Made by a program: the position numbers and the translations under genes. This document shows positions 14,849 to 64,000 of a stretch of 64,000 nt of DNA, piece after piece. How positions within the stretch are numbered: the stretch's first letter is position 1; each line of letters begins with the position of its first letter. Origin of the DNA: Elusimicrobiota bacterium (GTDB taxonomy: Bacteria; Elusimicrobiota; Elusimicrobia; FEN-1173). The stretch covers positions 619,133-683,132 of the forward strand of contig JADJJR010000001.1 in NCBI GenBank assembly GCA_016706425.1, written 5' to 3'. The notes below the pieces were generated by a model. It searched no databases, was not told the origin of the DNA, and worked only from the letters and a program-made list of their open reading frames with translations.

Positions 14849-15963
14849 GACTCTGGCCCGCGGCGCTTCTCTCGAGCCTCTCGGTGGGGCTCGCGGCCGT
14901 CGAGCCGGGGGCGCCGTTTTTGGCGGTGCCCCCCTCCGCCCGGGTGGAGGCCACGGGAGGCCTTTGGGCGTTCGCCGGGGGGATGGAAACCCTGTCCGTC
15001 AACCCCGCCCTTTTGGGCGTGGACAAAAGTCCCTGGCAATTTTATTCCAGCGCCGGGCAATGGGGCGAGGACGTGCAAACGGCCCACGCGGCGCTCGGGC
15101 GCGCGCACGCGCGAAGGCCCTGGGGCGTGGCGGTGACGCACCTGCGCAGCGACGGCGGCGGGGCGCGGGACGCCCTGGGCGGCGGGTCCGGCGCTTCCGT
15201 GGGTGTCCAGGACACGGCCTTGAGCGTGGGCGCAGCGCGCTCGCCGAACGGCCGCTTCGCCTTCGGGGCGGCGGCCAAGGTGTTTCAATCCAAATTGGGT
15301 TCCTACCGAAGCGACCCCGGGTGGGCGGTGGATCTGGGGGCGGCCTGGCGGGGCGACGCCGTGACGGCCGGCTTCGCCTGGCGAAACGCCGGGCCCGGCG
15401 TGCGTTTCGTCCGCCAGCGGGACCCCCTGCCCCAAACCGTCGACGCGCAACTCGCGTGGCGGCGCGGTCCCGTGACGTTGGCCGCGGGCGGACAATGGGA
15501 CGTGCCGCGTCGAGAATCCCGGATTTTGGCCGGCGGGGAGGCCCAGCTCGGCGCGCTCTCTTTTCGCGGCGGCTACGCGGTCTTGGAAGGGGATTCGTCC
15601 GACACGGAAGGTTTTGAGCGGGCCTCCCTCGGGTTCGGCCTGGCTTTGCCCAATCGGCTTCAGTTGGATTACGCCCTGCGCCCCGGGGGGGACGCTTTCG
15701 GCGCGTTCCACCGCCTGGCGCTGACCTGGACCTGGGGGGAGAAGAAGCCCAAGAAACCGACGGCGCCGGCGGCCCGTCCGTCCAGCGTTTTCAAAAAAGC
15801 GCCGGTCAAACAGGCCCCTAAAACCGTTCCGACGCCACCGAAGGTCGCCCCAAAAGCCGCTCCTGAAAAAAAGGCAAAGCCGGCGGCCAAGGAAAAGCCG
15901 GTCGCGCCCGAAAAGCCCAAACGCCCCCGCATCGGCGAGGGCGGGTACCGATTGGGCGGTTGA
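14845..15963 (+). CDS. Putative outer-membrane beta-barrel protein coupled to the upstream CTD cargo (PorP/SprF- or PorV-like partner?), Lys/Pro-rich C-terminal tail
   Basis: ATG overlaps the cargo stop (ATGA). Signal peptide. Alternating aromatic/Gly beta-strand-like pattern. N-terminal motif shared with the partial ORF at 63508. C-terminal KKPKKPTAPAARP...PEKKAKPAAKEKP tail. Confidence 0.45.
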   Translation: MRLWPAALLSSLSVGLAAVEPGAPFLAVPPSARVEATGGLWAFAGGMETLSVNPALLGVDKSPWQFYSSAGQWGEDVQTAHAALGRAHARRPWGVAVTHLRSDGGGARDALGGGSGASVGVQDTALSVGAARSPNGRFAFGAAAKVFQSKLGSYRSDPGWAVDLGAAWRGDAVTAGFAWRNAGPGVRFVRQRDPLPQTVDAQLAWRRGPVTLAAGGQWDVPRRESRILAGGEAQLGALSFRGGYAVLEGDSSDTEGFERASLGFGLALPNRLQLDYALRPGGDAFGAFHRLALTWTWGEKKPKKPTAPAARPSSVFKKAPVKQAPKTVPTPPKVAPKAAPEKKAKPAAKEKPVAPEKPKRPRIGEGGYRLGG

Positions 15964-17656: not shown

Positions 17657-18154
17657 TTAGAAGCGGGACCAGGTTGTTCCCCGGCTGTCGCGGTGGGTGC
17701 AGTTGATGAAAAATCGGCCGCCGGTGTACGGGGGATTTGTAGGGAAAAGGCGGTAGCCAAAACCGCCCGTATCAAGCATGCCCGCGGGAAAATAGCTAAG
17801 GGGTTGCGCCCCGATGTAAGATACGAAACTCAACGGGTCGGTCGAGTCGTGAGGGAGGGTCCGAACTGAAATGGGGGTCATGTTGTAACCCCCGCTGATG
17901 GGTGAAAGGTATTTGCCGACGAGATGGGTTGGGTGGCTTGGGTAAAACCCTTCGGTGTCGGCGTAGTACAAACCGAGCGCAGAACGATAGGTTCCCAGGA
18001 GGGCGAGGTTTTTTGCTTCCCGGGCCCGAACCAGCATATCGCCGAATTTGGGAATGGCGATGGCCGCCAATAGGCCGAGGATGGCCACGACGAGCATCAG
18101 CTCAATCAAGGTGAACCCCGGGGGCGGGTATCGATGGGAAAGTTTTCGCCTCAC
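17657..18154 (-). CDS. Type IV pilin / pseudopilin (prepilin N-terminal cleavage-methylation domain)
   Basis: [13 protein letters not shown]|[22 protein letters not shown]: leader ending in Gly, Phe+1, Glu+5, hydrophobic helix. No other pilus genes nearby. Confidence 0.75.
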
Positions 18155-18303: not shown

Positions 18304-18469
18304 AGGCCGAAAGGCCGGGGGGAGGACGGGAGGCCTCCCCCCACACCCCGCTCCCGCGGATGTCACCGCCGGGGCCGGGCCGCCGCGGCGGCCCAACGAC
18401 GAAGGCGTCTTGCGCGTGAAACCGCGCGGGACGCCTTTTTTGCTTTGTGGGGCAACAAAGGAGACGGAC

Positions 18470-21400
18470 ATGAAGACTTCGCTTGCGCAACGCTGGATCG
18501 CGTCGGTCACCACCGGCGCCTACCTTTTTACCGTGATCGGGGCGGCTCCGGTCGAGGCGTCTTTCTGGGAGGACCGCGCCCGTGCCCGCCGTTCGGACGC
18601 CGCGCCGTCGGGGCCCGGCCCTCTGTTGGCCCAACGGCCCGCCGCGCTTCGCGTTTCCTGGACCCCGGTGGGGTCCGCCGCGCTGTCGGCACCCGTGCCG
18701 CGTCCCGAACCGTCGGTGCCCGGCTGGGCCCGCGCGGCGGTCTCGCGCCACGGCGAGGTCCGAAACCTTTGGGAAGGCCCGGCCCGGGGCCCGCGGGTGT
18801 TCCTCCTGCTGGACGCCCACGACGTCGTTTCCGCCCAGCGCAACATCGCCGGGTTCCTCGCTCAATTCTCGTCCACGGCCCGCCCCGTGATCGGGGTCGA
18901 GGGGACCTCCGGCGCCTTCGCCTTCGACCGATACCGCGACCTCCTTGCCCCGGCGGACCAACGCGCCTTGGCGGAGCATTTGCTTAAAAAAGGCTTTTTG
19001 AACGGCGTCGAGTTGTTCGCCTTGACGGCCGAAACCGCTCCCGCCCTGTGGGGGGTGGAAGACCCGGCGCTCTACGACGCCCACGTGCGCGCCTACCGGG
19101 CGTCTTTGCCGGTGAGCGACAAAACCCGCGCCGCCCTGGCGCGGCTGAAAACCGATTCCCAAGAAGCGGCGGACCGGCTGTTTTCGCCGGAACTCCGCGC
19201 CCTGGACAAGGAAATCGCCGCCCGTCACGAAGACCGGAGCGACGCCGCCCGTTACGCCGCCGTTTTGGCCGAGGCCCTGGGGGACGCGGCGGGCCCGCAG
19301 ACCCGTCGTTTCCTGTCCGCCAAACGCCTGGAGGAGGGATTCGCCTTCCCCGATGTTGAGCAAGCGCGGGCCGCTTTCATCGAGCGGGTCTCCCCGCGCC
19401 TGTCGCCTTTTGAAACCCAACACTTGGTGCGCCTCACGGCGGAGTTCCGGGCGGGGGGCCTCTCGGGCCGCGACTACTACGCCCGCCTGGAGGAAACCGC
19501 CGCTTCCAAGGGCGTGCCCGTTTCGGCGTACCCGCCGTTCCAAAAATACATCCGCTACGTCGCCGCCGCCGAGGCGGTGGATCCGACGGCGCTCCTGGAG
19601 GAGTGGGACGTTTCCGAAGACCGCGCTTACGCCCGACGCTCCCGTCCGTCGGAGCGGCCGTTGATCGAATGGATTCAAGACCTGCGCCTGGCCGAACGCG
19701 CGGTGACCCACGCGCTGACGCCCGTCGAATGGGAGCGGGTCCGCGCGCGCCGCGCGCGGTGGGGGGATTGGGTTGAACGGGCGACCGCGTTGGGGGCGCC
19801 GGTCGACGCCGCGACGGATTTGCGATCGACACTGCCCGTTTTTGAATCCTTTTGCGAGGCGGCCGACGCGCGGAACGCGGCTCTTTTGGACAACGCGCTC
19901 GCCGCGGCCGAACGGCGCGGGGCGCGCGACGTTGTGCTGGTGACCGGGGGGTTTCACGCCCCGGCTTTGCGGCGGTTGTTGGAGGTCAAGGGCCTTTCCC
20001 ACGCCGTCGTGGCCCCCTTCGTCACGGAAGTGCCGGAAGACGGCACCGGGTACCTGCAGGCCTTCGCGTCGACCCGCACGCCTCTTGAACGGCTGTTGTT
20101 GGGCGACCGGCTTTTCATGAACCCCCCTTCGGCCACGTCCGTCGCCGTCCAGGACCCGGCGTCTCCCTTTCACGCCGCCGCCAAGGCCCTGGATCGCGCC
20201 GCGTTGGTTTACAGCGTGCCGTTGGTTCGCGGCGCGGATCTCAACGGTTTCATCGCCAAGGGCGGATGGAAGGCCACCGCGGCGTGGGACGCGACCGGGG
20301 ACCGGCGCACCGTCGAAATTCGCTTCGCCGGTTCCGCCCAGTCGGTGATGGTCGCCTCGCCCCGGGACGGGGCCGCCGCCAGCGGGGAGGGACTCGCCCG
20401 TTCGGTGGAAGAGACCGGCGCGCGGGTCGTGGAGACGGACACCGTCGGCGGCGTTCCCTACGCTCTGGGCGGCAAGACATTGGTCCGGGCGATTCCAGAA
20501 TGGATCGCGGGGGCGGCGTTCTTGATGTGGTGGGGGGCGGCGTCCTTGGCGCCGCCGGCGCTCTTGTGGGGTTTGGGGGCGGGGGCCATCGCCGGCGGCC
20601 TCATGTTGCGGGGCATGATCCTCGGCGCGGCGTTCCTGCACGGGGCCGGACACGCGGCCGCGGCGCGGACCGAAGGAGGAGCTTCCTTCCGCGGTTCCTT
20701 GGCCGCCTACGCGCGGTCCCTGGGCTGGACCGGTCTGGTGCCCTTCGCCCCGGTGTTCCTGCCCGGCCTTTCCCCGGAAAAAGAGGCGCCCAAAATGGAC
20801 ATCGGTCCCATGGCCGACGGTGCGGCGCGCCGGGTGGCCCTGGCCGGGCCCTTGGCCAACCTGACCGCCGTTGGGCTGGTGGCGCCCTTCCTGTCGCTCA
20901 CAGGGACTTTGGGACTGACCGACCTGGTTTTGGCGGCTTTCGCGGGGATCAACCTGTGGACGGCCCTCGCGTCGGTGTCGGATCTCCGCACGGCGCTCTC
21001 CGGCGTGGGCCGCGTGCTGGCCTGCGGGGTGGTGGGCGTGGTGTACGGCGGTCCCAACCCAAAATCCGAAACCCTGCCGGAGGGCGTGCAACGCTTGATG
21101 GATGGGGCCGTCCTGCGCACGCTCCACCGCGGCGGCCAGTCGGGGGGTGTGGCGGCGGTGGCGGTGCGGGAAAACGGCCACGCGGAGTTTTCGTTCTTTG
21201 TTGAAAAAACCGCCAAGGAGCGGGACCGCCGCGCGCGCCTGGGGGCGCTGATGCGCGCGGGCATGGCCCGCCTCGCGGCCCGCGCCCAAAAGGCGGGGTT
21301 CGGCGGCCTGCGGCGCCTGGTGGTGATCGGTCACACGCGCTACGGAACCAACCTGGCCCAGCCCGTGGCCGTCAACGCCCACCCCCACACCAGCGCGGGG

Positions 21401-24400
21401 GAAACCGACACGGTCCTTTACATCGGGGACGGAAAACGCGACGCCAAGTACGAGCGGCCCTGGGAACGGCCCGTCGACGCCCCGACGGTGAAATCCGTCG
21501 CCCTGCCGCGGGGCGTGGCCATCGCCCACAACGGCGACGACAACGCCACGGTCCTGTTCCGCCGGGGCGATCGGAAGGTCGAGCTCTCGAACGAGGACGA
21601 CGCCCGCCTGAGCGAGCGGATGACGGGACACCAAAACCCCGCTCAGGGCGACTCGCCCCAAATCGCCACCCGGTTCGACCGCTGGATCACCCAAGGGTCG
21701 GTGCGCGCGTCCCTGCGGTTGGCCCTGCTGAACACGTCCTTGGAATCCTTGCCCGGGGAGGACCTGTCCGCCGAAGAGGTCCTGGCCCGCGCGCCCACGC
21801 CGGCCACGCTGGACGGGCTGATGCAGGCCAAGACCTTTCAGGGATTTGCCGCCGAGTTGGAGGCGCTCCACCGCCGGCACCCGGCCGCGACGCATGGGGA
21901 GGCGTTGTTCGCCGCCGCCGGCGCCCGGGGGGTGTCGGACGAAGCGGTCTGGGATCTGGAGGACGCCGTGCCGTTCGTCGGAGGATCCGACATCGAAAAA
22001 CTTCGGAACACCCTGGCCGACCAATCGCGGGCGGTGTTTAAAATCTTGCCCTGGTTCGCCGCGCTGGAGGGGGCGGACCAGGCGCGCGCCGCGCGGCGCT
22101 TCGCCGACCTGTATTTAAAATTTTTCTTCACCGGCGATCTCCGTCGGGCGGGCGTCCATCTGTTGCGGCGGGCGGACCCGACGTCCACTTTCGGCGTGAT
22201 GGCGGGCACGCTGTTGGAGGGGGAAAGCGCCGTTTGGTTGCGCCAGCGTCAGCCCTTCTACCTGTGGATGTCGACGGACGGGCTCAGCGTGGCCGGCAGC
22301 AGCGAGGCCAAGGCCTTTTTGGGCGCGCGCGCGGGGGAAAGCCCGTTCCGCCATCGCCTGACGTTGAAGAACGGGGAGGTCGCGACCCTGCGGGGAACCC
22401 GGCTCGTCATCGACCACGTGGAGCGGGGGCGGGTGGCGTCCTACGACCTGTCCCGCCCGGCCGAGGCGTTCGCCGACGCGCGGTGGTTGGATTTGGAAAC
22501 CAGCCCCCACGTCACCGCCTCCACGTCGGAAGCCGTGCCCGCGGAAAAGCGCGTGCGGGACGACACGGAAACCATTCCCTGGGTCAACGCGAAACTGGCC
22601 GAGGATTTCGCCGATCCGAAATCCAACAACAGCCGCTCGGCGGACGCCCTCGTGGGTTTGCTCGCCGACCGGTTGGCCAAACGGAAATCCGCGGGCGGCG
22701 GGATCGACCTGGTGATCGTGGGCACGGAAAAGAGCTTTGACGCGGCCTCGGCCCACGCCCGAATCCTGGAAAAAATATCCAGCCTCGCCGGTCGGCGGCT
22801 CAACGTCCGCGTGGTGTACGGCGCGGAATTCACCCGGGAGGATTTGGTTCAAATGCGGGACGAAGGCTTTGGCGCCGACACGGTCGTCCTGGGCCTGACC
22901 AGTTCGGGCCAGACGGCGAACACCTTTTACGCGCTCGAAGGGCTCCACGCCGCCTGGCGCGGCCTGCGGGAAAAAGCCGGTCTTCCCGACGACGCGACGC
23001 CCCCCCATTTCCTGGTGTCGGCGGACATCGACAACCCCTACACGGAGGAAGTGCTCGGGCAGGGGCTCGGCGCCGGGGATCCCTTCAAAGCCCGGAATTT
23101 CGTGACGTTTCCCGCCCTCGATCCCTTCCACCCGGCGGAGGCGGCGACGGTCACCCACAAGGCCACGGAGCGGCTGCTGAAGGAAGTGTCGGCGCGCTTC
23201 GCGGCGGCGTTGGCCGCCAAGAGCCGGCGTTGGGCCGGCGGGGGCCTGCCGGGACACATCCCGGGGTCCATCCGCCGCATGGTGGACAACGGCGATGAAC
23301 TGGACCGCCGGATCACCGGGTTGGACGCCGACGGCAACCCCCACCGCCACCTGCGGCGCACCGGGGAGACCAACGACATTCCCGACCAGATCGGCGCCGG
23401 GGCCGATCGGCTGAGCCAAGCCTTTTTAGAATCCCTCTGGGCGACGGGCGCCACGGCCCTCTTCATCGCGGTGACCCTGTTGTTCCACGCGACGCCGGCG
23501 AGCGTTCTCCTGAGCGGGTTCCCCAACGGGGCCTACCTGTTCGCCGACGGGGTGCCGCTGTTGGCGGCCGGCGTGGGGCTGTTGACCGTCGCCGTCGCGG
23601 CGTGGAAAACCCGCGCCTGGCGATGGCACGGTTTGTTCGCCGCCTTGGGGGGCGTGGCGGTCTTCGGGGCGGGTCTTTTCGCCGGGGAATCCCTGGTGTT
23701 GGCTCTCGACGCGGCGGGCCGCGCGGCGGGTTGGGGCGCCCTGGGCACGGGGTGGGGCTCCTTGCCCCTGGGTTTGGACGTCTCCCCGGTCAACTTGGTG
23801 AACGCGTTCACCTACATTTTCTTTTTCTTCGGATTCACCCTGGCCTTGAGAAAATACCAGGGACGTCCGTTGTGGGACCGGTTGGGCGGCCGCGTTTTGG
23901 TCTTGGCGGACGCCCAGCATTCCATCGCGCGTTTGAGCGCCGCCCGTTGGCGCCGCATGCTCAGCCACCGGTTCGGCTGGATGGGGCTCAATTCGATCAA
24001 TGAGTCGTCCCTCGGACGGTTGACCCACGAGGAGGCGCTCAATTCCAACGTGCGGGGCAACATTTACCTGCAGGGGGAGGCCCGCCACGCCGAGGGGCCG
24101 ACCCTGATGAATTACAAGCAATTGGGCGGCAGCCCCAACGGACCCGGCCGGGTGTGGCGCATGGGGATCGGGCACAAGCCGCGCGCCCAGGCCAGCGCCG
24201 CCTATTCGGAGGGCTACATCTCCCTCCACATGAAGAGCGACGACGTCGCCGGGTCGGACCCGGACCTGGCGGTGTTGCAGGACCTGGTGCAGGACGGCCC
24301 GGCCCGCGACACCGCGGGAATGGTCCTGTCGTTGGAAGTGGCGGAGCGCATGGCGGGCATTCGCCCCTTGAACTTCGTGGTGGGCATGACCTCCAGCGAA

Positions 24401-26035
24401 GCCAAGACGTCCACCACGCAACAGCCCTTCGCCCCGCTCTCGGAGGGAGAGGTCCGGGCGGTGTTCGGCTTGACCCCGCGCCTGGAGCCCCGGGCGGCGA
24501 CGGCCGAAATCCTTCCCGACCCCCTGCCGGAGGTCGGACCGTCCGTGGGAACGCCCGCGGCGGCCCCGGCGCGCAAGTCGTCCCCGCCGCGCCCGACGGA
24601 CGTGGAAGTCCCCCCGTCGCCTTCAGACACCGCGCCCCGCGTTGCGGGTTGGGTGTGGCGCTGGACGCGGATGGCCGCCCTGGCGCTCGTGGTCGTGATC
24701 CTGTCGTCCAGCGGGGAACGGGTCCTCTCTTCCGCGCGAAACGCCCTGGACCGCCCCGCGCCGGCGGTCGTCGGTTCGTTGGTGGGAGCCGAAACGGTGC
24801 AAAAAAGCGTCCCGGCCGGTGTCCAAAACGTCGCCCCGCCGGTCGTGGTTTTGGAAGCCGCCGTTCCCCTCACGACGCGGGTGTGGTATCACGCGAAGGG
24901 GACGGGCGAACTGAAATTGAAAAAGGGGATGATCCCCGCCGGGACGGCCTTGACAGTGATTCGACGCAATCCGGAGAAAACCCTGGTGCGCGTGCGGGCC
25001 CAAACCCCCGGCGCCCGCGCGGTTTGGGTCCGCGCGGCGGAGTTCGATCGGGGCACCCGGGTTCGCACCGAAGCGGCGCCCGTGACGTCCTTTAACCCCC
25101 CAAACATTCCGCTGTCGCAACAGGCGGTGCCCCTGGACGCCGCCGGCGCCCCGTGGCTGGCGCCCGTGGTGCCCGTCTTGTCGATGGTGGGCCGTCGCCG
25201 CGCGGCCCAGAACAAAACGCCCGGCGCCCTCCTGCGGCGACGGCTCCTGGGCGGCGCGCGCGCCTGGAGCGTCGCCGACCGTCCCTGGGCCGAAGCCCTG
25301 GCGGGGTATTTGGAAAAACCCACCGACACCGACTGGGCCGAGCAGGCCCTGCGGACGGCGCTCGCCTACGGCGCTCTGGGGGGGGCGCGTTGGGGCGCCG
25401 ACCGGGGGTGGCAAAACGACTTCCGGGAAACCCGCTCCATCTTGAAAGGGGCGGCGCTCTCCCCGCGCGAAGGGCGCGCCTTGACGACCTTGGCCCGGCG
25501 CGCCGCGGCCTGGACCCGCGGGGGGTCCCCAACCGCCTTTTCCGACGGGGCCGTCGCGGTCCTGGACTTGACCGAAGCGGAAAAAGAAACCCATCTGTGG
25601 CACCATTGGGCGGCGGCCGCGGAACGAACCGCCCGGGGCGAGCCCGCGCCCGTGTTGGTGGCCCGCTCCGAACGCCAACGGGAACGCCTGGAGGCCGCCT
25701 GGGCGGCCTGGCGCGGCGAGGCGCCCCCCGCCGGGGCGTGGGTGTATTTGGACGTCCTGGACGGTCGGACCGTGACGCGGGGGACCGATGGCTTGCCCGC
25801 GACGGTGCGGCTGGGCGGGGTGCTCAAGGCCGCCGGGGTGAACCCGGACCGGCTGTCCGCGGTGGACGTGGTGTCGGGGGTGGGCGGCGCCCACGCCTGG
25901 GACCGATCCGACCTTCCCGCGAACGTGGTCGTGCGGATGATCATCGGCCTTTTGCGCGAACTGACCCTCACGGCGGTTTTGGACGAGGCGCAAAACGCGT
26001 TGCGCTCGGCCCGCGCGGCCCTGACCGCGGCCTGA
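18470..26035 (+). CDS. Giant (2,521 aa) multidomain membrane protein with embedded GlmS-like class-II glutamine amidotransferase + SIS module
   Basis: ATG 18470 with AAAGGAG SD. Uninterrupted 7.5-kb ORF; the antisense ORF is R/G/P-rich junk. Signal/TM N-terminus. Tiki/TraB-like GxxH-like motifs (FLLLDAHDV, VLVTGGFHAP; tentative). TM blocks. Internal Ntn motif LACGVVGVVYGG and LHRGGQSGGVAAV (GATase-II). SIS-like VLGLTSSGQTANTFYALE. SH3-like C-terminal part. Confidence 0.6.
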   Translation: MKTSLAQRWIASVTTGAYLFTVIGAAPVEASFWEDRARARRSDAAPSGPGPLLAQRPAALRVSWTPVGSAALSAPVPRPEPSVPGWARAAVSRHGEVRNLWEGPARGPRVFLLLDAHDVVSAQRNIAGFLAQFSSTARPVIGVEGTSGAFAFDRYRDLLAPADQRALAEHLLKKGFLNGVELFALTAETAPALWGVEDPALYDAHVRAYRASLPVSDKTRAALARLKTDSQEAADRLFSPELRALDKEIAARHEDRSDAARYAAVLAEALGDAAGPQTRRFLSAKRLEEGFAFPDVEQARAAFIERVSPRLSPFETQHLVRLTAEFRAGGLSGRDYYARLEETAASKGVPVSAYPPFQKYIRYVAAAEAVDPTALLEEWDVSEDRAYARRSRPSERPLIEWIQDLRLAERAVTHALTPVEWERVRARRARWGDWVERATALGAPVDAATDLRSTLPVFESFCEAADARNAALLDNALAAAERRGARDVVLVTGGFHAPALRRLLEVKGLSHAVVAPFVTEVPEDGTGYLQAFASTRTPLERLLLGDRLFMNPPSATSVAVQDPASPFHAAAKALDRAALVYSVPLVRGADLNGFIAKGGWKATAAWDATGDRRTVEIRFAGSAQSVMVASPRDGAAASGEGLARSVEETGARVVETDTVGGVPYALGGKTLVRAIPEWIAGAAFLMWWGAASLAPPALLWGLGAGAIAGGLMLRGMILGAAFLHGAGHAAAARTEGGASFRGSLAAYARSLGWTGLVPFAPVFLPGLSPEKEAPKMDIGPMADGAARRVALAGPLANLTAVGLVAPFLSLTGTLGLTDLVLAAFAGINLWTALASVSDLRTALSGVGRVLACGVVGVVYGGPNPKSETLPEGVQRLMDGAVLRTLHRGGQSGGVAAVAVRENGHAEFSFFVEKTAKERDRRARLGALMRAGMARLAARAQKAGFGGLRRLVVIGHTRYGTNLAQPVAVNAHPHTSAGETDTVLYIGDGKRDAKYERPWERPVDAPTVKSVALPRGVAIAHNGDDNATVLFRRGDRKVELSNEDDARLSERMTGHQNPAQGDSPQIATRFDRWITQGSVRASLRLALLNTSLESLPGEDLSAEEVLARAPTPATLDGLMQAKTFQGFAAELEALHRRHPAATHGEALFAAAGARGVSDEAVWDLEDAVPFVGGSDIEKLRNTLADQSRAVFKILPWFAALEGADQARAARRFADLYLKFFFTGDLRRAGVHLLRRADPTSTFGVMAGTLLEGESAVWLRQRQPFYLWMSTDGLSVAGSSEAKAFLGARAGESPFRHRLTLKNGEVATLRGTRLVIDHVERGRVASYDLSRPAEAFADARWLDLETSPHVTASTSEAVPAEKRVRDDTETIPWVNAKLAEDFADPKSNNSRSADALVGLLADRLAKRKSAGGGIDLVIVGTEKSFDAASAHARILEKISSLAGRRLNVRVVYGAEFTREDLVQMRDEGFGADTVVLGLTSSGQTANTFYALEGLHAAWRGLREKAGLPDDATPPHFLVSADIDNPYTEEVLGQGLGAGDPFKARNFVTFPALDPFHPAEAATVTHKATERLLKEVSARFAAALAAKSRRWAGGGLPGHIPGSIRRMVDNGDELDRRITGLDADGNPHRHLRRTGETNDIPDQIGAGADRLSQAFLESLWATGATALFIAVTLLFHATPASVLLSGFPNGAYLFADGVPLLAAGVGLLTVAVAAWKTRAWRWHGLFAALGGVAVFGAGLFAGESLVLALDAAGRAAGWGALGTGWGSLPLGLDVSPVNLVNAFTYIFFFFGFTLALRKYQGRPLWDRLGGRVLVLADAQHSIARLSAARWRRMLSHRFGWMGLNSINESSLGRLTHEEALNSNVRGNIYLQGEARHAEGPTLMNYKQLGGSPNGPGRVWRMGIGHKPRAQASAAYSEGYISLHMKSDDVAGSDPDLAVLQDLVQDGPARDTAGMVLSLEVAERMAGIRPLNFVVGMTSSEAKTSTTQQPFAPLSEGEVRAVFGLTPRLEPRAATAEILPDPLPEVGPSVGTPAAAPARKSSPPRPTDVEVPPSPSDTAPRVAGWVWRWTRMAALALVVVILSSSGERVLSSARNALDRPAPAVVGSLVGAETVQKSVPAGVQNVAPPVVVLEAAVPLTTRVWYHAKGTGELKLKKGMIPAGTALTVIRRNPEKTLVRVRAQTPGARAVWVRAAEFDRGTRVRTEAAPVTSFNPPNIPLSQQAVPLDAAGAPWLAPVVPVLSMVGRRRAAQNKTPGALLRRRLLGGARAWSVADRPWAEALAGYLEKPTDTDWAEQALRTALAYGALGGARWGADRGWQNDFRETRSILKGAALSPREGRALTTLARRAAAWTRGGSPTAFSDGAVAVLDLTEAEKETHLWHHWAAAAERTARGEPAPVLVARSERQRERLEAAWAAWRGEAPPAGAWVYLDVLDGRTVTRGTDGLPATVRLGGVLKAAGVNPDRLSAVDVVSGVGGAHAWDRSDLPANVVVRMIIGLLRELTLTAVLDEAQNALRSARAALTAA

Positions 26036-31317: not shown

Positions 31318-31431
31318 GCCGGACCGGCCGCGAACCGCGCCGCGTCGAATCATTCCCACTCATTCCACCAAGAACTTTTGCGCCGCCCCGGTGTCCCACC
31401 GGTGCGGCTAATTTATTTTGAGAGGACCCCC

Positions 31432-34400
31432 ATGAAAAAAACCCTTTGGCTGTTCGTTCTGTTGGCGGTGACGCGGTCGGCCCACGCCGTTGCGGTCGAC
31501 CGCGCCGGGGCGGAGGCGGCGTTGGCCCGGGGGGACTACGCCCAAGCGCTCACGGACTTTTCCGCGCTTGTCCTGCGGCCGGCCGTGGATGAAAACGTGG
31601 GCCAGGATTTTAAAAATGTCCTGCAATGCCTGGAACGATTGAATCGGTCCGGGGACATCGATTCTTTCCGGGACAAGGCGATCGGGGCGCACCCCGGCAA
31701 CTGGCGGCTGGCGGTGGCGGCCGCCGACAGCCTGCGGGAGACCCCTTCTTTTGGACACATGATCGATGGCCAATTCCACCGGGGTTACCCCCGGGTGTGG
31801 AATGTCCGCCTGGTGGACGCGGGCGAGCGGGACCGGGCGCGGGCGCTGGCTTGGTTGGAGAAGGCCCTGGACGCCGCCGAAAAAGAAACCCGCCCGGTCG
31901 CGGGCGATTTTTACCGGGCCCTGGCCGACACGCTTTATTCGCGGCGGGAGGGGGCGGGGGCCTGGCGGTTGGGCGCCTTGACCTCGACCACGGAATGGCC
32001 TGACTATGATGATTACGGCGGCGGGACGAGCGCCGCGGGCGCCCCAGTGGACCGGGCGGGTCAACCGGTGTTTCATCGCGCGCCGAGCGGATGGGCGACG
32101 GCGCGCTCGGACGGGGAGCGCTGGCGCTGGGCGTTGGCGGCCTGGGCCCGCGCCGACGCCGCCCGCGCCCCCGAAAGCCGGCGGCGGTACGCCGATTTTC
32201 TCTCCCAACAGTTCGGGGTCGAGACCCTGCAATCTTTCGGCTGGTTTTGGGGACGTGTGACCGACGACGAATCGACGGCGGCGGCCCTGTGGTCGCTGGA
32301 CGGGTTGGGGGAAGACGAGACCCTGGCCCGGTTGGCCACGGGGGTCAAGCGATTTAAATTGCCGCCGGAACACAACTTCATCGCGATCTACAAGTCCCTG
32401 GAGGGTTTCCGGGAACTGGCCCAAATCTTCGAGAACCGCCGCCAATACGAACGCGCCGCCCATTATTGGCGGCTGTCGATGGGGGCCGCCGCCGAGGTCC
32501 CCGCCCCCGACGCCCCGCCCACCCACGACGAAGCCCGTGAACACCTCCGTCAGATCCTCGGCCGGTGGGGAACGTTCGCGGACGAGGAAGCGCCCGCCGG
32601 GCGTCCGACGTCGGTGGCCTTTCGGTTCCGCAACGCGACCTCCGTGCGTTTTGAGGCGCACGCCTTGAACGTGAACCGCCTGATCACCGACGTGAAGGCC
32701 TATTTGCGTTCGGATCCCGGCGACTGGGACTGGTCGAAGATGAGCCTGAACGACATCGGCCAGCGGATCGTCTGGGAGGGGCAAGAGAAATACCGGGGAC
32801 GGCGGGTGGCCTCTTGGACGGTGCCGCTCACGCCCCGCCCCGGGCATTTCGACCGGCGCGTCACGGTGCCCCTGCCGTTTAAGGACAACGGGGCATTCCT
32901 TATCACCGCGCGCGTGGAGGGCGGCAACACGAGCCACCTCGTGGTTTGGCGCGACGAACTCGCCCTGGTTCAAAAGCCCGTCGGGGACGGCGATTTTTAT
33001 TTTGTCGCGGACGCGGCGACCGGCCGGCCCGTTTCGGGGGCGGTCTTGGATTTCTTCGGCTTCCGCAACGAATACATCGATTCCCGCGTCGGTCGCCCGC
33101 GCATGAAAACCCACGCGCGGGGTTTTTCCCGGACGGTCGATCAAAACGGCGGCGCGACGGTGGGCGCGGCGGATCTGGGACGGGACCATCAATGGTTGGT
33201 GGAGGCCCGGGACGCCCGGGGGCGGCGCGCGTTTTTGGGGTTTCAACATTATTGGTTCCGGTCCCGGTGGGAAGGCGAACCCGCCCGGGCGGCGGCGTTC
33301 CTGATCTCCGACCGGCCGGTCTACCGCCCCGAGCAAGTCGTCCGTTTCCGCGCCTGGGCGGACCGCGCCGCCCACGACCGGACCGGCCCTTCGCCCTTCG
33401 CGGGGGCGGCTTTTTCCGTCACGATTTACGACCCCCAGGGTAAAAAAGTGTTTGAACGGTCCGTCGCCGCGGACGCGCGGGGCGGTTTTGACGGGGAATT
33501 TCCCTTGCCGGCGGACGCCGCCTTGGGAGCCTATTCGTTGCGGGCCCTGGGGCCCGCCCAGGGGTTTTTGTCTTTCCGCGTCGAGGAATACAAGAAGCCG
33601 GAATTTGAAGTGACGGTTTCGGCGCCGACGGAGCCGTTGCGCCTGGGCGACGCCGCCGTGGTCAAAATCGCCGCCCGGTATTACTTCGGCGCGCCGGTGA
33701 CCGAAGGGAAAGTGAAGTTCAAGGTCCTGCGCACGAGCGAGGACGGACGCTGGTACCCGTCGGGGCCCTGGGATTGGCTGTACGGGAACGGTTACGGTTG
33801 GTTGGGCACGGAGGCGACCTGGTGGCCCGGCTGGGCGCGCTGGGGATGTTGGCGCCCCCGCCCCCTGTGGTTTCCCGTCGACCGCACCCCGCCCGAGATC
33901 GTGGCCGAAGGCGAGGCGTTTTTGGAAAAAGACGGCACGCTGTCCGTGCCCATCGACACGGCCCTGGCAAAGGCCCTGCACCCCGACCGGGACCACCGCT
34001 ACGAAATCACCGCCGAAGTGACGGACAAGTCCCGGCGGACGATCGCGGGGCGGGGGGCGATGGTGGCCACGCGGCAACCGTTTCGCGCCACGGCCTGGAC
34101 GGACCGCGGGTTTTACCGCACGGGGGAACCGGCGCGGGTGTCCTTCGCGGCGGTGACCCCGGGCGGGGCGCCCCTGGTCGGGGCGTCCGTGCGGGCGGTG
34201 TTGCACCGGTTGGTCCCCCGGGGAGCGGCCGCGCCGACGGAAGAGCGGCTCGAGGCCTGGGCGCTTCGGACCAACGCCGAGGGGCGGGGGGCGGTCTCCC
34301 TCAAGGCCCTGCGCGCCGGGCAATACCGTTTGAGCGTGACGATCACGGACGGCCGGGACCGGGACGTGGAGACCGCGGCGCTGTTCACGGCCCGCGGCGA

Positions 34401-37400
34401 CGGCGATCCGGGGAATGATTTTCGGTTCAACGACTTGGAAATCCTGCTGGACCGGCGCACCCACGCGCCGGGGGAGACGGCCCGGCTCCTGATCAACACC
34501 GCCCAACCCGGGGGCGCTGTGCTGCTCTTCGTCCGTCCGGTCAACGGGGTCTACCAACGACCGGAGCTGGTCCGGTTGGACGGTCGAAGCGGGCTGCGTG
34601 AGGTGCCGCTGGCCGCGGCCGACAGCCCGAACATTTTCGTGGAAGCGGTGGCCGTGCGGGACGGGCGGGTGTTCTCAGAAATTCGGGAAATCCTTTTGCC
34701 GCCCGAAAGCCGCGCCTTGAACGTGGAGGTGAAGCCGGTCGCCTCGACGGTGAAACCCGGCGAGACGGCGAAAGCCCGGGTGCGGCTGACGGACGCCGCG
34801 GGCCGGCCCGTGCGCGGGTCGCTCACCCTGGCGGTCTACGACAAGAGCGTGGAATACATTTCCGGCGGCTCCAACGTGGCCGACATTCGGGAGTTCTTCT
34901 GGAAGTGGCGCCGGTCCCACACGCCGGGCGGGCGCTCGGCCTTCGACCGGTGGGACCGGTCGTTTCCTTTGAAGGACCGTCCCGGCATGGGGCCCCTGGG
35001 GGTGTTCGGCGCGGCGGCCCAGGACGAATTCCAGGGATTGGACAAGGATCGTTTGCGGGAGGGGGGGGTCGCGGGAGGGGCGGCTTTGCGCAAGGCCGCG
35101 GCCCCCGCGGCGACGCGGAGCGGTGTTTCCTCGGCCAACGCGGTGGCGGACGCCGCCGCGCCGGAGGAGGAATCGAGGGCCGTCTCTCCGGGCGTTGAAC
35201 CGACGGTGCGCAGTCGGTTCGCCGACACGGCCCTGTGGGTCGGCCGCGTCGACACGGACGCCCGGGGCGAATCCACGGTGTCTTTCAAAGCCCCCGACAA
35301 CCTGACGACGTGGAAGACCCGCGCCTGGGCGGTGAGCGACGGGGCGCGGGTGGGCGAGGGGACGGCGGAGATCGTCACCGCGAAAAAATTGTTGGTCCGC
35401 CTGCAGACCCCCCGCTTCTTGGTTCAAAAGGACGAGGCGGTTCTGAGCGCCAACGTGCACAATTATTTATCGTCTCGAAAAGACGTGCGGGTGTCGCTGG
35501 TTTTGGAGGGGGACACCCTCGCATTGTTGGACGGCGGCGACCGCACGGTGTCGATCCCGCCCCAGGGCGAAGCCCGGGTGGATTGGCGCGTGCGGGCCCT
35601 TCGCCCCGGGCCGACGACGGCGCGCGCGAAAGCCGTGACGGACGAGGAATCGGACGCGGTCGAAATCCGTTTCCCGGCGCGGGTCCACGGCATGACGAAA
35701 ATCGAATCCTTCGGCGGGTCCCAGCGGCCCGAGGCGACGGCGTCGTCCTGGACCTTTCGCGTGCCGGCGGAGCGCCGACCGGAAGCCTCTCGGTTGGAGA
35801 TCCGCGTTTCCCCGAGCCTGGCCCTCGCCATGGTGGACGCCCTGCCCTATTTGGCCGACTACCCCTACGGGTGCACGGAGCAGACGCTGAACCGGTTCCT
35901 GCCCACCGTCATCACCCAGGGGGCGTTGCGGCGGCTCGGGATTTCCCTCGCCGACGTGCGGGAAAAACGGACGAACCTGAACGCCCAGGAGGCCGGGGAC
36001 CCGGCCCGCCGGGCCCGCCGTTGGGGGGGCGAGGAAGAACCGTTCCGGAACCCGGTGTTCGACGAGAAAAAAGTCGCCGACATGGCGGCCACGGGTTTGA
36101 AGCGATTGACCGCCATGCAACTTTCCGACGGCGGGTGGGGGTGGTTCAGCGGTTCGCGCGAGGAATCCTCGCCCCACACCACGGCGGTCGTGGTGGACGG
36201 CTTGTTGACCGCCCGGGGGGCGGGACTGAAGGTGCCCGCCGATGTCCTGGGCCGGGGCGTGGCCTGGTTGGCGCGTTACCAAGAGGGCGAGGGGGAGCGC
36301 CTGCGTCGCGGGGACGCGAAAAAAAGCGACGGCAAGGAGGCGGCCGACGAATTGGACGCCTTGGTATACCGGATTCTCGTGGACGCCGGGCGCGAAAGCG
36401 CCGTCTTGCGCGGGTATCTGTGGCGGGACCGTTTAAAAATCAGCCTCTACGCCCAGGGGCTACTGGGCCAGGCGCTTCACCGGGCGGGGCGAGCGGAGGA
36501 GAGCGCCCAGCTGCGTCGCCATCTGGCCCAGTACGTGGTCCGGGACGACGAGAACGAGACCGCCCATCTGCGCATGGACAACGCCCATTATTGGTGGCGT
36601 TGGTACGGCAGTGAAACCGAGGCCCACGCCGCGGTGTTGCGGTTTTTCCTGGCCGAGAACCCCCGGGACCCGGTGATCCCCCGCTTGGTGAAATACCTGC
36701 TCAACAACCGTCGGCACGGGACCTACTGGAACTCCACCCGCGACACGGCGCTGATTGTGGAGGCCTTCGCGGAGGTGTTGGCGGCCACCGGCGAGGACCG
36801 GCCGGATTACACCCTGACCGTGGCCGTGGACGGCCGGACCGTGAAAACCGTGGTCATCAGCCCGGCCAATCTCTTCACCTTTGAGAACCGGGTGGTCCTG
36901 GCGGGGGAGGACCTGTCCACCGGGACGCACACGGTGAGTCTCGTCAAAGCGGGTCGGGGCGCCCTTTATTGGAACGCCACCCTGGAAAACTTCACGATGG
37001 AGGATCCCCTGACCCGCGCGGGTTTGGAGATCAAGGTCGACCGGGCCTATTACAAACTTCGCGACGCCGGCGCGAGCGTCGCCGCCGTCGACGCGCGCGG
37101 CGGGCCCGTGGACCAACGGGTGGAGAAGAAGTCCCGCGTTCCATTGACGGACGGCGAGGAAATCAAGACCGGCGACGTGGTCCTGGTGGAATTGTCCGTG
37201 GAGTCCAAAAACGACTACGAATACATTCTGGTCGAGGACCGGAAACCGGCGGGGTTCGAACCCGTGGCCCTGCGCAGCGGGGAAAGCGGCGGACCGTACA
37301 TGGAGTTGCGCGATGAGCGGGTCGGGTTTTTCTTCCGGGCCCTGGGACGCGGACGGGTGAGCGTTTCCTACGAACTGCGGGCGGAGACCCCGGGCCGCTT

Positions 37401-37488
37401 CAGCGCGTTGCCCGCCCGGGCCCTGGGCATGTACGCCCCCGAATTGGCCGCCAACAGCGACGAGTTCAAGACGCGGGTGGCGGACTGA
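31432..37488 (+). CDS. Alpha-2-macroglobulin family protein (bacterial A2M, thioester-containing)
   Basis: Signal peptide MKKTLWLFVLLAVTRSAHA. MG-domain repeats. Thioester-like YPYGCTEQTLNRF (CxEQ). About 2,018 aa. Confidence 0.8.
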   Translation: MKKTLWLFVLLAVTRSAHAVAVDRAGAEAALARGDYAQALTDFSALVLRPAVDENVGQDFKNVLQCLERLNRSGDIDSFRDKAIGAHPGNWRLAVAAADSLRETPSFGHMIDGQFHRGYPRVWNVRLVDAGERDRARALAWLEKALDAAEKETRPVAGDFYRALADTLYSRREGAGAWRLGALTSTTEWPDYDDYGGGTSAAGAPVDRAGQPVFHRAPSGWATARSDGERWRWALAAWARADAARAPESRRRYADFLSQQFGVETLQSFGWFWGRVTDDESTAAALWSLDGLGEDETLARLATGVKRFKLPPEHNFIAIYKSLEGFRELAQIFENRRQYERAAHYWRLSMGAAAEVPAPDAPPTHDEAREHLRQILGRWGTFADEEAPAGRPTSVAFRFRNATSVRFEAHALNVNRLITDVKAYLRSDPGDWDWSKMSLNDIGQRIVWEGQEKYRGRRVASWTVPLTPRPGHFDRRVTVPLPFKDNGAFLITARVEGGNTSHLVVWRDELALVQKPVGDGDFYFVADAATGRPVSGAVLDFFGFRNEYIDSRVGRPRMKTHARGFSRTVDQNGGATVGAADLGRDHQWLVEARDARGRRAFLGFQHYWFRSRWEGEPARAAAFLISDRPVYRPEQVVRFRAWADRAAHDRTGPSPFAGAAFSVTIYDPQGKKVFERSVAADARGGFDGEFPLPADAALGAYSLRALGPAQGFLSFRVEEYKKPEFEVTVSAPTEPLRLGDAAVVKIAARYYFGAPVTEGKVKFKVLRTSEDGRWYPSGPWDWLYGNGYGWLGTEATWWPGWARWGCWRPRPLWFPVDRTPPEIVAEGEAFLEKDGTLSVPIDTALAKALHPDRDHRYEITAEVTDKSRRTIAGRGAMVATRQPFRATAWTDRGFYRTGEPARVSFAAVTPGGAPLVGASVRAVLHRLVPRGAAAPTEERLEAWALRTNAEGRGAVSLKALRAGQYRLSVTITDGRDRDVETAALFTARGDGDPGNDFRFNDLEILLDRRTHAPGETARLLINTAQPGGAVLLFVRPVNGVYQRPELVRLDGRSGLREVPLAAADSPNIFVEAVAVRDGRVFSEIREILLPPESRALNVEVKPVASTVKPGETAKARVRLTDAAGRPVRGSLTLAVYDKSVEYISGGSNVADIREFFWKWRRSHTPGGRSAFDRWDRSFPLKDRPGMGPLGVFGAAAQDEFQGLDKDRLREGGVAGGAALRKAAAPAATRSGVSSANAVADAAAPEEESRAVSPGVEPTVRSRFADTALWVGRVDTDARGESTVSFKAPDNLTTWKTRAWAVSDGARVGEGTAEIVTAKKLLVRLQTPRFLVQKDEAVLSANVHNYLSSRKDVRVSLVLEGDTLALLDGGDRTVSIPPQGEARVDWRVRALRPGPTTARAKAVTDEESDAVEIRFPARVHGMTKIESFGGSQRPEATASSWTFRVPAERRPEASRLEIRVSPSLALAMVDALPYLADYPYGCTEQTLNRFLPTVITQGALRRLGISLADVREKRTNLNAQEAGDPARRARRWGGEEEPFRNPVFDEKKVADMAATGLKRLTAMQLSDGGWGWFSGSREESSPHTTAVVVDGLLTARGAGLKVPADVLGRGVAWLARYQEGEGERLRRGDAKKSDGKEAADELDALVYRILVDAGRESAVLRGYLWRDRLKISLYAQGLLGQALHRAGRAEESAQLRRHLAQYVVRDDENETAHLRMDNAHYWWRWYGSETEAHAAVLRFFLAENPRDPVIPRLVKYLLNNRRHGTYWNSTRDTALIVEAFAEVLAATGEDRPDYTLTVAVDGRTVKTVVISPANLFTFENRVVLAGEDLSTGTHTVSLVKAGRGALYWNATLENFTMEDPLTRAGLEIKVDRAYYKLRDAGASVAAVDARGGPVDQRVEKKSRVPLTDGEEIKTGDVVLVELSVESKNDYEYILVEDRKPAGFEPVALRSGESGGPYMELRDERVGFFFRALGRGRVSVSYELRAETPGRFSALPARALGMYAPELAANSDEFKTRVAD

Positions 37489-57878: not shown

Positions 57879-61882
<4,004 letters not shown>

Positions 61883-61886
<4 letters not shown>

Positions 61887-63511
61887 AAAAAGCGCTGGCG
61901 GTGTTGTTGATGATGGCGGCGGGCGGCCTACGCGCGGCGGTCACCACCGAACAGGTGACCACGGTCTCGGCGGTATCGTCCACCACGTTCATGGGCACGA
62001 ACGTCGCCCTCGATAGCCTCAACACCGTTCACGTGACTTATTACGATCCGGCGAGCCAGCGGCTGCGTTACACCAAACTGGTGAACGGGCAAACCACCTG
62101 GTCGGCGCCGATCAACGTCATCGACCAAACCGTGTCGCCCCGGAGCGACATGAAGTTGAGCGGCAACACCCCCCACGTGGTTTTCTATGAAATCGACGCC
62201 ACGGGGTCCCGGGCCGGGGTCAAACACACCCAACTGAACGGGTCGACGTTTCAGTCGCCCACCACCATCCAAAGCTTTGTCTCCACGATCACCTATGTGT
62301 CCCTGGCCGTCGCCTCCAACGGTCAACCCCGCGTGGCCTTCAACAACACCGTCAGCTCGGCCACGGTCTACGCCGCCTACAGCGGCACGGTCTGGAGCAC
62401 CCACACGGTGCACATCAGTTCTTACCCCACGGCGGTGGCGTTGGATTTGGCCTCCGACGACACCCCCCGGCTGGCCTTCCTGACGGGGGGGGACTCCCTG
62501 GGCCTGCCCGATGACCGATTGGGGTATTTCGCTGTCGGTGGCTCCACGCCGACGGTGAAGGGGTGGTGGCCCGTGGACTGGGCGACCGCCCCGCCGTCGG
62601 GCTTGGCTTTGGCGGTGGACGACAACAACCAATCGCACATTTTCGACAGCTACACGTCGGGCGGTTCCCCGTGGATCGAGTATTACCTCGCCTCGAGCAC
62701 CGGCGGGTTTTTGAATTACGAACCGGTCGGCGGCGGAAGCGAATTTCTGGACGCCGCGGTGAACAGTCTGGAACGTCCCACGGTGGTTTATTTGTCCACC
62801 GCACCGGGGTTTTCAAGGGCGGCGTGGAACGGCACGGGGTGGGAATATTCGGTTCTGGACGGCTCCGCCGCCGTGGCGGGGGTCGGCCCCAGCGTGGTTT
62901 ACAACCGGTTCGATCATTTCCTGGCCACCTATTACACCACCGCCCCCGCGGCGGCGGTTCATCTCCAAACCGACGCGAACCGAGGCTTGACCCTGGGCGG
63001 CACGGTCCAGGATTTCGCCGCGGCGGCCATCCCCGGCGCGGTCGTCCAATTGGCGGGGAGCATTGCCACCGGCAACCTCCCGGCGGGAACGGGTTCCTAC
63101 TCCCAATTGAACCTGTGGGAGGGGGGCTACACCGTGACGCCCTCCGCGGCCGGGTACGCCTATGTCCCCGCGAGTCAATCCTTTGCCTCGTTTCAGGCCA
63201 CCAACACCACCGTGAATTTCGTGGGCGGGCCCGTGAACATTGACGTGGCCGACAATTTGTTTGATCCGTCCAAGGGCGAGATCATGACGGTGAATTATTC
63301 CGTCCTGCCCGGGGCGGTGTTGGTACGGGTTTACACCCTACGGGGCGTGCCGGTCAAAACCCTGGTGGACGGTTCCCACGCCGCCGGCGCCTTCAGCACG
63401 ACCTGGGACGGCCGCAACGACGCCGGGGAAATCGTCGCGAGCGGAATCTATTTGATCCGGATCGAAGCGGACCGGCTGAACAAAATTTTGAAAGCGGCGG
63501 TGGTTAAATGA
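61883..63511 (+). CDS. Secreted beta-rich protein with T9SS/FlgD-like C-terminal sorting domain
   Basis: GTG overlaps the carA stop (GTGA). Signal peptide. C-terminus NLFDPSKGE...[13 protein letters not shown]...GIYLIRIEA...KILKAAVVK resembles Por_Secre_tail / FlgD-Ig-like. Confidence 0.6.
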
Positions 63512-64000
63512 AACGCGCGCGTCGAGCCGGGATTCTCTTGATCGCCGGGGCGATCCCCTGGGCCCTCCGGGCCGTGGACTCGCGCACCGGCGGTTTGACC
63601 CTGTTGGAGACCGCCGACGCCCGCGCCACCGCCCTGGGCGAAGCCGCGACCGCCCTGACGGGGGATTTGAGCGGGGTGGCCTACAACCCGGCCGCCCTGA
63701 CGACGATGGAATTTTCCCAGTTCTTGTCCCAATTTGAAACCTCCCCCGGCGAGGTGCGCACGGGGCTCCTGGCCGGCGGGTGGACCAATCAGCGGGTGGG
63801 TCTGGCCGCGTCGGTCGCCTACCTCGACGCCGGCACCATCGACATCGTGCCCACTCTGGGGCCGTCGGTCACCCGCCGCGCCCAGCAGGATTTCGTGGGG
63901 TCCCTGTCGGCGGGCGCGGCCCTGGCCGAGGGGTTCCGCGTGGGTGTCACGGGAAAATTCCTGACCTCCCGCCTGGCGGAGGAAGCTTCGGCCACCGCGG
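63508..64000 (+). CDS. Putative outer-membrane protein, paralog of 14845..15963 (partial; runs off the window)
   Basis: ATG overlaps the upstream stop (ATGA). N-terminal motif LLETADARATALGEAATALTGDLSGVAYNPAALT parallels LAVPPSARVEATGGLWAFAGGMETLSVNPALLG. Confidence 0.45.
   Translation, partial: MKRARRAGILLIAGAIPWALRAVDSRTGGLTLLETADARATALGEAATALTGDLSGVAYNPAALTTMEFSQFLSQFETSPGEVRTGLLAGGWTNQRVGLAASVAYLDAGTIDIVPTLGPSVTRRAQQDFVGSLSAGAALAEGFRVGVTGKFLTSRLAEEASATA

Follow-up and report, generated by a model that had tools for sequence, protein, structure and literature searches.

The closest described counterparts of the genes treated here belong to the secretion system of type 9 (T9SS), in which, in Bacteroidota, PorU and PorZ both retain their C-terminal domain (CTD) and remain attached to a barrel, PorU to PorV and PorZ to PorQ (PMC10202324); in the terms of that review, PorQ is a barrel that retains an uncleaved CTD protein. 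Type B CTD substrates follow another arrangement, being encoded directly upstream of their cognate PorP/SprF-like barrels, which are needed for secretion of the substrate and then remain bound to it as surface anchors (PMC12618676, PMC9143113). For type A CTDs the published view is that all of them use a single PorV (PMC12618676). Here we describe a 64-kb stretch of an Elusimicrobiota contig (JADJJR010000001.1, positions 619,133 to 683,132 of the forward strand; 66% G+C), hereafter the window, in which both CTD-bearing open reading frames (ORFs; 2/2) are directly followed by a gene for a barrel of the PorV/PorQ family. Gene linkage, homology and conservation in relatives lead us to favour, with some reserve, the view that each barrel would bind the CTD of the protein encoded by the preceding gene and serve this one protein as carrier or anchor.

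The two barrels and the genes before them

We refer to the upstream gene of each pair as the cargo and to the downstream gene as the partner, and the two pairs comprise the following features.

11543..14848, + strand: cargo 1, 1101 amino acids (aa), exported, with a papain-like cysteine peptidase, several immunoglobulin (Ig)-like domains and a CTD (Pfam and motifs)
14573..14845, + strand: CTD of cargo 1, the last 91 aa, 'FPNPA...YDYVWSG...SGLYRVVV...VTIVR' (CTD hidden Markov model (HMM), E = 1.8e-18; alignment with other CTDs)
14845..15963, + strand: partner 1, a 372-aa divergent PorV/PorQ-family barrel (family HMM, E = 1.9e-81; full-length family alignment)
61883..63511, + strand: cargo 2, 542 aa, exported, with a seven-bladed beta-propeller (GTG start; ORF and translation; gene also called in public assemblies)
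61988..62974, + strand: beta-propeller passenger of cargo 2, residues 36-364 (AlphaFold2 and Foldseek)
62990..63169, + strand: CarboxypepD_reg-like Ig spacer of cargo 2, residues 370-429 (weak: PF13620, E = 4.3e-4, below cut-off)
63251..63508, + strand: CTD of cargo 2, the last 86 aa, a FlgD_ig / T9SS type-A-like Ig sandwich (Pfam, CTD HMM and model)
63508..64000, + strand: partner 2, a PorV/PorQ-family outer-membrane barrel, 164 of 324 codons in the window, the end would be 64482 (full gene at 11626..12600 of L001)

The original prediction had described a beta-rich secreted protein at 61883..63511 with a sorting-type C-terminal domain, overlapped at its stop by a gene starting at 63508, and both the coordinates and the sequence features were confirmed: the TGA of cargo 2 (63509-63511) is overlapped by the ATG of partner 2 (63508) in an ATGA, and the ATG of partner 1 (14845) likewise overlaps the TGA of cargo 1 (14846-14848).

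The complete partner 2 was read from L001, a 21.6-kb public-assembly locus that holds cargo 2 and the full partner gene; by exact look-up, the cargo-2 protein is found on a 2.52-Mb contig (JADJDY010000001.1) of an Elusimicrobia metagenome-assembled genome (MAG), GCA_016702405.1. At full length it scores 104.6 bits against the family model NF033709 (cut-off 90), over profile positions 7-324 of 326, and its 164-aa in-window part scores 55.6 bits. Against the equivalog models it lies far below the cut-offs (47.2 bits versus 250 for PorV, NF033710; 60.4 versus 220 for PorQ, NF033711), and partner 2 is a member of the PorV/PorQ family that is an orthologue of neither PorV nor PorQ. The family profile matches the F. 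johnsoniae PorV chain 6h3i_F at E = 1.8e-30, and the fold agrees: the AlphaFold2 model of P0001, which is 98% identical to partner 2, is all-beta after short N-terminal helices (predicted local distance difference test (pLDDT) 82, predicted template-modelling score (pTM) 0.78), and its best Foldseek matches are the PorV chains 8gl6_F and 6h3i_F (query template-modelling (TM) scores 0.72 and 0.69), two structures that show PorV bound to the CTD of RemA (8gl6) and within the complex of the SprA translocon (6h3i). With a limit of E <= 0.001 the profile matches 38,447 clusters, and tightening the limit to E <= 1e-10 leaves 20,658; canonical PorV and PorQ are among them. In NCBI naming, close homologues of partner 2 are called 'PorV/PorQ family protein' and partner 1 a 'hypothetical protein'; P0002, 91% identical to partner 2, is named 'PorV/PorQ family protein [Dokdonella sp.]' by one source, in which an Elusimicrobia contig was probably binned wrongly with a gammaproteobacterial MAG.

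Partner 1 reaches 51.6 bits with the T9SS_PorQ model (E = 7e-14; cut-off 220) and has no PorV model match, so that it too is an orthologue of neither. The original prediction took the N-termini of the two partners to match motif by motif and proposed a pairwise alignment as a check. That alignment is not significant when the 164-aa fragment of partner 2 is compared with the 372-aa partner 1 by BLASTP (E = 10), and the two full-length proteins reach E = 0.009 over a central stretch only; it is the reciprocal profiles that establish the homology, with E = 3.5e-19 for the partner-2-family HMM against partner 1 and E = 3.2e-8 for the partner-1-family HMM against the partner 2 fragment, no other six-frame ORF of the window falling below E = 0.025 with either. 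An alignment of 15 sequences extends this homology across the whole barrel, the two partners sharing ~22% identity, with invariant R39, N60-P61(-A62), G146, D168/G170, N188/G190 and L202-P203. The AR (R39) and NPA (N60, P61, A62) of the proposed motif match fall on invariant columns and are hallmark hatch motifs of the family, the NPA hatch motif being common to FadL as well; the G-W-x-x-x-x-V-G motif is unaligned, and its likeness in the two sequences is probably due to chance. Partners 1 and 2 are related distantly, within the large PorV/PorQ family, and do not form a pair of close paralogues.

Both cargos have signal-peptide-like N-termini, that of cargo 2 being hydrophobic. Cargo 1 matches the Pfam families Big_7, Big_9 and Cadherin_5 and, weakly, Peptidase_C1 (E = 0.012); papain-type Cys/His/Asn motifs were located by eye at 11954 (GSCAQWA), 12440 (GAHAMTIVGYND) and 12542 (ANSWGTGY), and a comparison of its N-terminal domain with PDB sequences returned no match. 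The homologues of cargo 2 are all ~500-540 aa long, and its AlphaFold2 model, built on a shallow alignment, is confident for residues 36-364 only, the Ig spacer being of low confidence. The confident part is an all-beta propeller of ~28 strands (pLDDT mostly 70-94), for which the best Foldseek matches are the seven-bladed Photorhabdus lectins PLL2 and PHL (E = 3e-12, target TM 0.74, 12-13% identity), followed by sialidase-type propellers; for a glycan-binding role of cargo 2 the predicted structure offers a hint at most.

The CTD of cargo 2 scores 33.3 bits with Pfam FlgD_ig (cut-off 27), matches PDB FlgD 3osv at E = 1.5e-5 and our own CTD HMM at E = 7.5e-31, and has six strands in the AlphaFold2 model. 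The type B CTD model TIGR04131 has no match at E <= 1 in either cargo. The cargo CTDs are type-A-like in length, position and pattern, the window copies being sub-threshold; among the cargos of related cassettes, the Elusimicrobia cargo of L021 passes the TIGR04183 model (24.5 bits; cut-off 23), and those of L009 (22.7) and L012 (21.4) fall just under it.

The pair in related loci and its surroundings

Related loci were sought with a narrow alignment of the partner-2 family in scans of a genome collection and a metagenome collection, plus three picks from a representative library, and the upstream ORFs were read in every locus. The sample was picked by similarity to partner 2, includes some orthologous duplicates, and describes the partner-2 barrel subfamily, not all PorV relatives; its evaluable loci come from Elusimicrobia, one Eisenbacteria MAG, one MAG labelled Cytophagia and unlabelled metagenome contigs. 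Across these distant lineages the pair is conserved: in 27 of the 28 evaluable loci, the gene directly upstream of that for the barrel ends in a CTD, so that the pair, which the original prediction had proposed to check for conservation as a unit, is indeed syntenic elsewhere. Two of these loci (L034 and L037) have classical YPNP-type CTDs, which our CTD HMM misses and which were found by reading the upstream ORFs. Cargo and barrel overlap by 4 nucleotides (nt) at about half of the junctions and are otherwise no more than ~75 nt apart, and the ATGA overlap is kept in many relatives of both pairs.

The degree to which cargo and context are retained can be followed with distance. Relatives of partner 2 at 52-55% identity still have the cargo, overlap it by ATGA and lie in the carA/carB context, and one at 37% keeps cargo and overlap in an unrelated context; relatives of partner 1 at 67-88% identity keep the 1101-aa cargo, and one at 30% (L012) follows a 1640-aa TIG-domain protein. 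The TIG passenger in L012 is unrelated to that of cargo 1, yet its CTD is cargo-1-like (38% identity) and its barrel belongs to the partner-1 family, which speaks for modularity. More generally, the passengers before related barrels vary (TIG, Big_13, Glucodextran_B, proteins of 791 to 1640 aa). In the Eisenbacteria MAG (L025) the upstream gene is a bona fide PorU sortase (535 bits; cut-off of the PorU model 420), and of all barrels in the set the one that follows it comes closest to PorV; this pair is canonical porU-porV. Both window partners score higher for PorQ than for PorV, as do all seven cargo-adjacent barrels scanned, a comparison that leaves out three barrels: the neighbour of PorU in L025, the second of a tandem in L024, and L023_2194, which is an extra one. 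Homology of the partners by profiles, together with this synteny in relatives, supports the original prediction of dedicated cargo-partner cassettes.

Some loci hold further arrangements of the same parts. In L025 (1520-9781) PorU and the barrel are followed by a second, 1104-aa CTD protein; L026 and L035 run from CTD protein to barrel, to a 513-aa weakly related ORF and to another CTD protein; in L030 the barrel stands between two CTD proteins, and L029 and L024 contain tandem barrels. Within the window, two further features adjoin or belong to the pairs.

60768..61886, + strand: carA, carbamoyl-phosphate synthase small chain (8886..10004 of L001; CPSase_sm_chain and GATase domains)
15745..15960, + strand: C-terminal tail of partner 1, rich in Pro, Lys and Ala, ~70 aa behind the final strand of the barrel (alignment columns 395-470)

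The genes purA, carA, cargo 2, partner 2 and carB lie head to tail (window 59482..64000 onward; 7600-15918 in L001), with 4-nt overlaps at purA/carA, carA/cargo 2 (the carA TGA overlapping the GTG start of cargo 2 as GTGA, 61883-61886) and cargo 2/partner 2; carB follows after a gap of 6 nt. The surface-protein/barrel pair splits carA from carB, an order kept in the Elusimicrobia loci L007, L008, L018 and L019, and a scan for terminators and promoters from purA to carB returned nothing above shuffled expectation. About 6.5 kb beyond the end of the window, a 440-aa ORF on the minus strand (18585-19907 of L001) weakly matches the barrel-family HMM (E = 1.3e-9) and DUF5723; a TPR protein precedes it, and no CTD gene is adjacent.

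On the side of pair 1, the tail of partner 1 ends in PKRPRIGEGGYRLGG and is kept in P0037; partner 2 and most relatives lack it. Other C-termini in the family include TPR extensions in L021 (672 aa) and L041 (673 aa) and a SPOR-domain match in P0044. A gene resembling type IV pilins or pseudopilins, with a methylation motif at its N-terminus (17657..18154, - strand), lies 1.7 kb downstream of pair 1. A 2541-aa ORF (18410..26035, + strand) with several hydrophobic stretches by eye is kept beside pair 1 in L010 (2518 aa there). We considered this ORF as a candidate SprA/Sov and rejected it: it has no Pfam family at E <= 0.01 and just a weak GlmS-like amidotransferase stretch at residues 872-999. 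The window also encodes a bacterial alpha-2-macroglobulin of ~2050 aa (31318..37488, + strand) with MG2, A2M, bait-region, TED and bMG10 domains.

Carrier, anchor or something else

We suggest that each cargo may be exported by Sec and reach the cell surface, the cargo of pair 1 as a papain-like protease with Ig domains and that of pair 2 as a lectin-like beta-propeller, and that the PorV/PorQ-family barrel of FadL fold encoded by the overlapping downstream gene would bind its C-terminal Ig-like domain in the outer membrane. From a translocon in the outer membrane the cargo would pass to the barrel, which would keep it attached non-covalently at the surface, in the way that Bacteroidota barrels hold PorZ (PorQ), PorU (PorV) and type B CTD proteins (SprF/PorP-like), and the stop/start overlap would couple translation and yield cargo and barrel in matched amounts. 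The translocon, whether a T9SS SprA-like protein or another, would be encoded elsewhere in the genome; by homology, the barrels would be CTD-binding shuttles or anchors, not the translocon itself. That the barrel binds the CTD is suggested by homology and gene linkage together, and we infer the surface location of the cargo, the specificity of each barrel for it, its route across the outer membrane and the presence of a translocon.

Several observations pull against this proposal and have to be set beside it. Elusimicrobiota are placed directly under Pseudomonadati, outside the Fibrobacterota-Chlorobiota-Bacteroidota (FCB) group, in the NCBI taxonomy; T9SS genes are stated to be absent outside the FCB phyla (PMC11285876); and the literature searched for Elusimicrobia together with T9SS, PorV, Gld or Spr held no paper making the connection. 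Among those window proteins that were scanned there is no T9SS core gene (SprA/Sov, PorK/L/M/N, PorU, PorZ). Three of the window copies fall short of the curated cut-offs, the CTDs of cargo 1 and cargo 2 scoring 12.9 and 15.1 bits with TIGR04183 and partner 1 scoring 70.3 bits (E = 2e-19) with NF033709. Overlaps of 4 nt are ordinary in this genome (5 of 14 co-directional junctions in L001), and in the sole exception to the pairing, L015, the barrel stands alone. Finally, the distance between CTDs correlates with that between barrels in a mirror-tree/Mantel comparison (r = 0.83 overall, reached by 0 of 5000 permutations), and this correlation falls to r = 0.04 (2154 of 5000 permutations) with one pair per orthologous group. 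The correlation is carried by the orthologous groups alone, and we make no case for a CTD-barrel co-evolution beyond common descent. L018 mixes lineages, its CTD being 80% identical to that of L007 and its barrel 91% identical to that of L008, a pattern that points to recombination close to, or at, the junction of cargo and barrel inside the carA/carB orthologous group; because of this mixture and the fall in r we do not claim strict one-to-one co-evolution of CTD and barrel.

Because T9SS is stated to be absent outside the FCB phyla and no paper connects it with Elusimicrobia, two alternatives are live for the phylum: a T9SS that has gone unrecognised, or a T9SS-independent use of the CTD-barrel module. 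The latter would make barrel and CTD a self-sufficient device for export and display, in which, for example, the CTD docks to or threads with the barrel during assembly dependent on the beta-barrel assembly machinery (BAM), or the cargo crosses the secretin of a type 2 secretion system (T2SS) before the barrel captures it. In the loci examined, a barrel of its own accompanies nearly every CTD gene, the gene directly upstream of the pair in L009 encodes a T2SS-type ATPase, the type IV pilin-like gene is found near pair 1, and the two absences, of T9SS components from the window proteins scanned and of a connecting paper from the literature searched, point the same way. A FadL fold with its hatch is too narrow for folded domains, which argues against passage of a folded propeller or protease through the barrel, and the same arrangement occurs in lineages with T9SS parts (PorU in L025, YPNP-type CTDs in L034 and L037, the MAG labelled Cytophagia in L023); we regard such a device as unlikely. 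It is similarly unlikely that Elusimicrobia display surface proteins through self-contained cassettes of a CTD cargo and a private PorQ-like barrel without SprA or PorKLMN. If that were true, the interaction of PorV/PorQ with CTDs would be an older, autonomous anchoring module that the Bacteroidota T9SS recruited later, and thousands of similar cassettes in uncultivated phyla would amount to a distinct and undescribed display system.

The two pairs could also be read as the two halves of a T9SS-like attachment complex serving many CTD substrates encoded elsewhere, pair 1 supplying a PorU-like peptidase with its PorV and pair 2 a PorZ-like propeller, a glycan carrier, with its PorQ. The canonical porU-porV order, recovered in L025, provides the precedent, and the papain-type Cys/His/Asn motifs of cargo 1, the propeller-plus-CTD build of cargo 2 with its weak matches to the CTD ends of PorZ and PorU, and the sugar-binding lectins as its closest folds would all suit the roles; the conserved carA/carB housekeeping context of pair 2 in Elusimicrobia at 52-55% identity would moreover suit a core component better than an accessory cargo. 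Cargo 1, however, has no PorU model match, and cargo 2 matches PorZ and PorU over just 35-55 CTD residues (E = 0.002-0.004); as a PorZ homologue by sequence it was rejected, since the cargo-2 profile finds no PorZ chain in PDB at E <= 10. The barrels, at 47-60 bits, are far from the equivalog cut-offs of PorV and PorQ, and related barrels follow many unrelated passengers, which a cargo-by-cargo arrangement fits better, so that we hold the attachment complex to be distinctly improbable. Should the partners instead be ordinary FadL-type channels for hydrophobic compounds, their adjacency to CTD genes would reflect mere co-expression. FadL, TodX and CymD are indeed the next-best structures for the P0001 model, there are weak Toluene_X Pfam matches, and the NPA hatch motif is shared with FadL; PorV, however, clearly matches best, in sequence as in structure (query TM 0.7 versus ~0.5, E = 3e-14 versus 1e-7), and linkage to a CTD gene in 27 of 28 loci, with very different contexts and passengers, is unexpected for a transporter. 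Given this linkage and the closer PorV match, a FadL-type transporter is very improbable indeed, and a dedicated carrier or anchor for the protein encoded upstream is the reading that we prefer.

Comparison with known systems

The current model of T9SS has one shared PorV for type A CTDs and private PorP/SprF barrels only for type B (PMC12618676). The cassettes suggest that private barrels of the PorV/PorQ family are common for type-A-like CTDs, and Elusimicrobiota, which have such barrels, are not among the phyla to which a T9SS is ascribed. Confirmation would alter the counting and interpretation of CTD proteins when metagenomes are annotated, would allow surface-anchored substrates to be told from released ones by a simple rule applied to genomes, and would bear on the evolution of the T9SS attachment module.

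With FadL and TodX channels the window partners share a FadL-type beta-barrel and an N-terminal hatch with the NPA motif, and they differ from them in fitting PorV better in structure. We know of no linkage between FadL genes and genes for CTD-bearing proteins.

The PorQ-PorZ and PorV-PorU pairs of the P. gingivalis / Flavobacterium attachment complex are the known cases of a type A CTD bound uncleaved to a FadL-fold barrel (PMC10202324, PMC10947112). The window partners share the NCBIfam family of PorV and PorQ, partner 2 has the same fold by the P0001 model, and the order of porU and then porV, as recovered in L025, is that of the window pairs. Unlike in those systems, the passengers are unrelated to PorU and PorZ, the barrels lie far under the equivalog cut-offs, at least two pairs occur in 64 kb, the ~300-aa barrels form a family of many thousands of clusters, and the host belongs to a phylum without a reported T9SS.

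The SprB-SprF, PG1035-PorP and Fjoh pairs resemble the window pairs in having a barrel gene directly 3' of the substrate gene and one barrel per substrate, and P0027, which is related to partner 2, even scores above the cut-off of Pfam PorP_SprF. Unlike in type B systems, the window CTDs are short (~90 aa) and type-A-like/FlgD_ig, and the window barrels match PorV/PorQ models instead of PorP/SprF, for which PF11751 finds no match in P0001 or P0033 at E <= 0.1; the window pairs have no more in common with the type B/PorP-SprF cassette than the order of the genes and the logic of one barrel for one cargo. That logic was already known for type B CTDs and for PorU/PorV, and the partner was recognisable, and partly annotated, as PorV/PorQ. 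What is new relative to these systems is private PorQ-like barrels for type-A-like CTD proteins, in a widespread and tightly coupled cassette that is found here in Elusimicrobiota.

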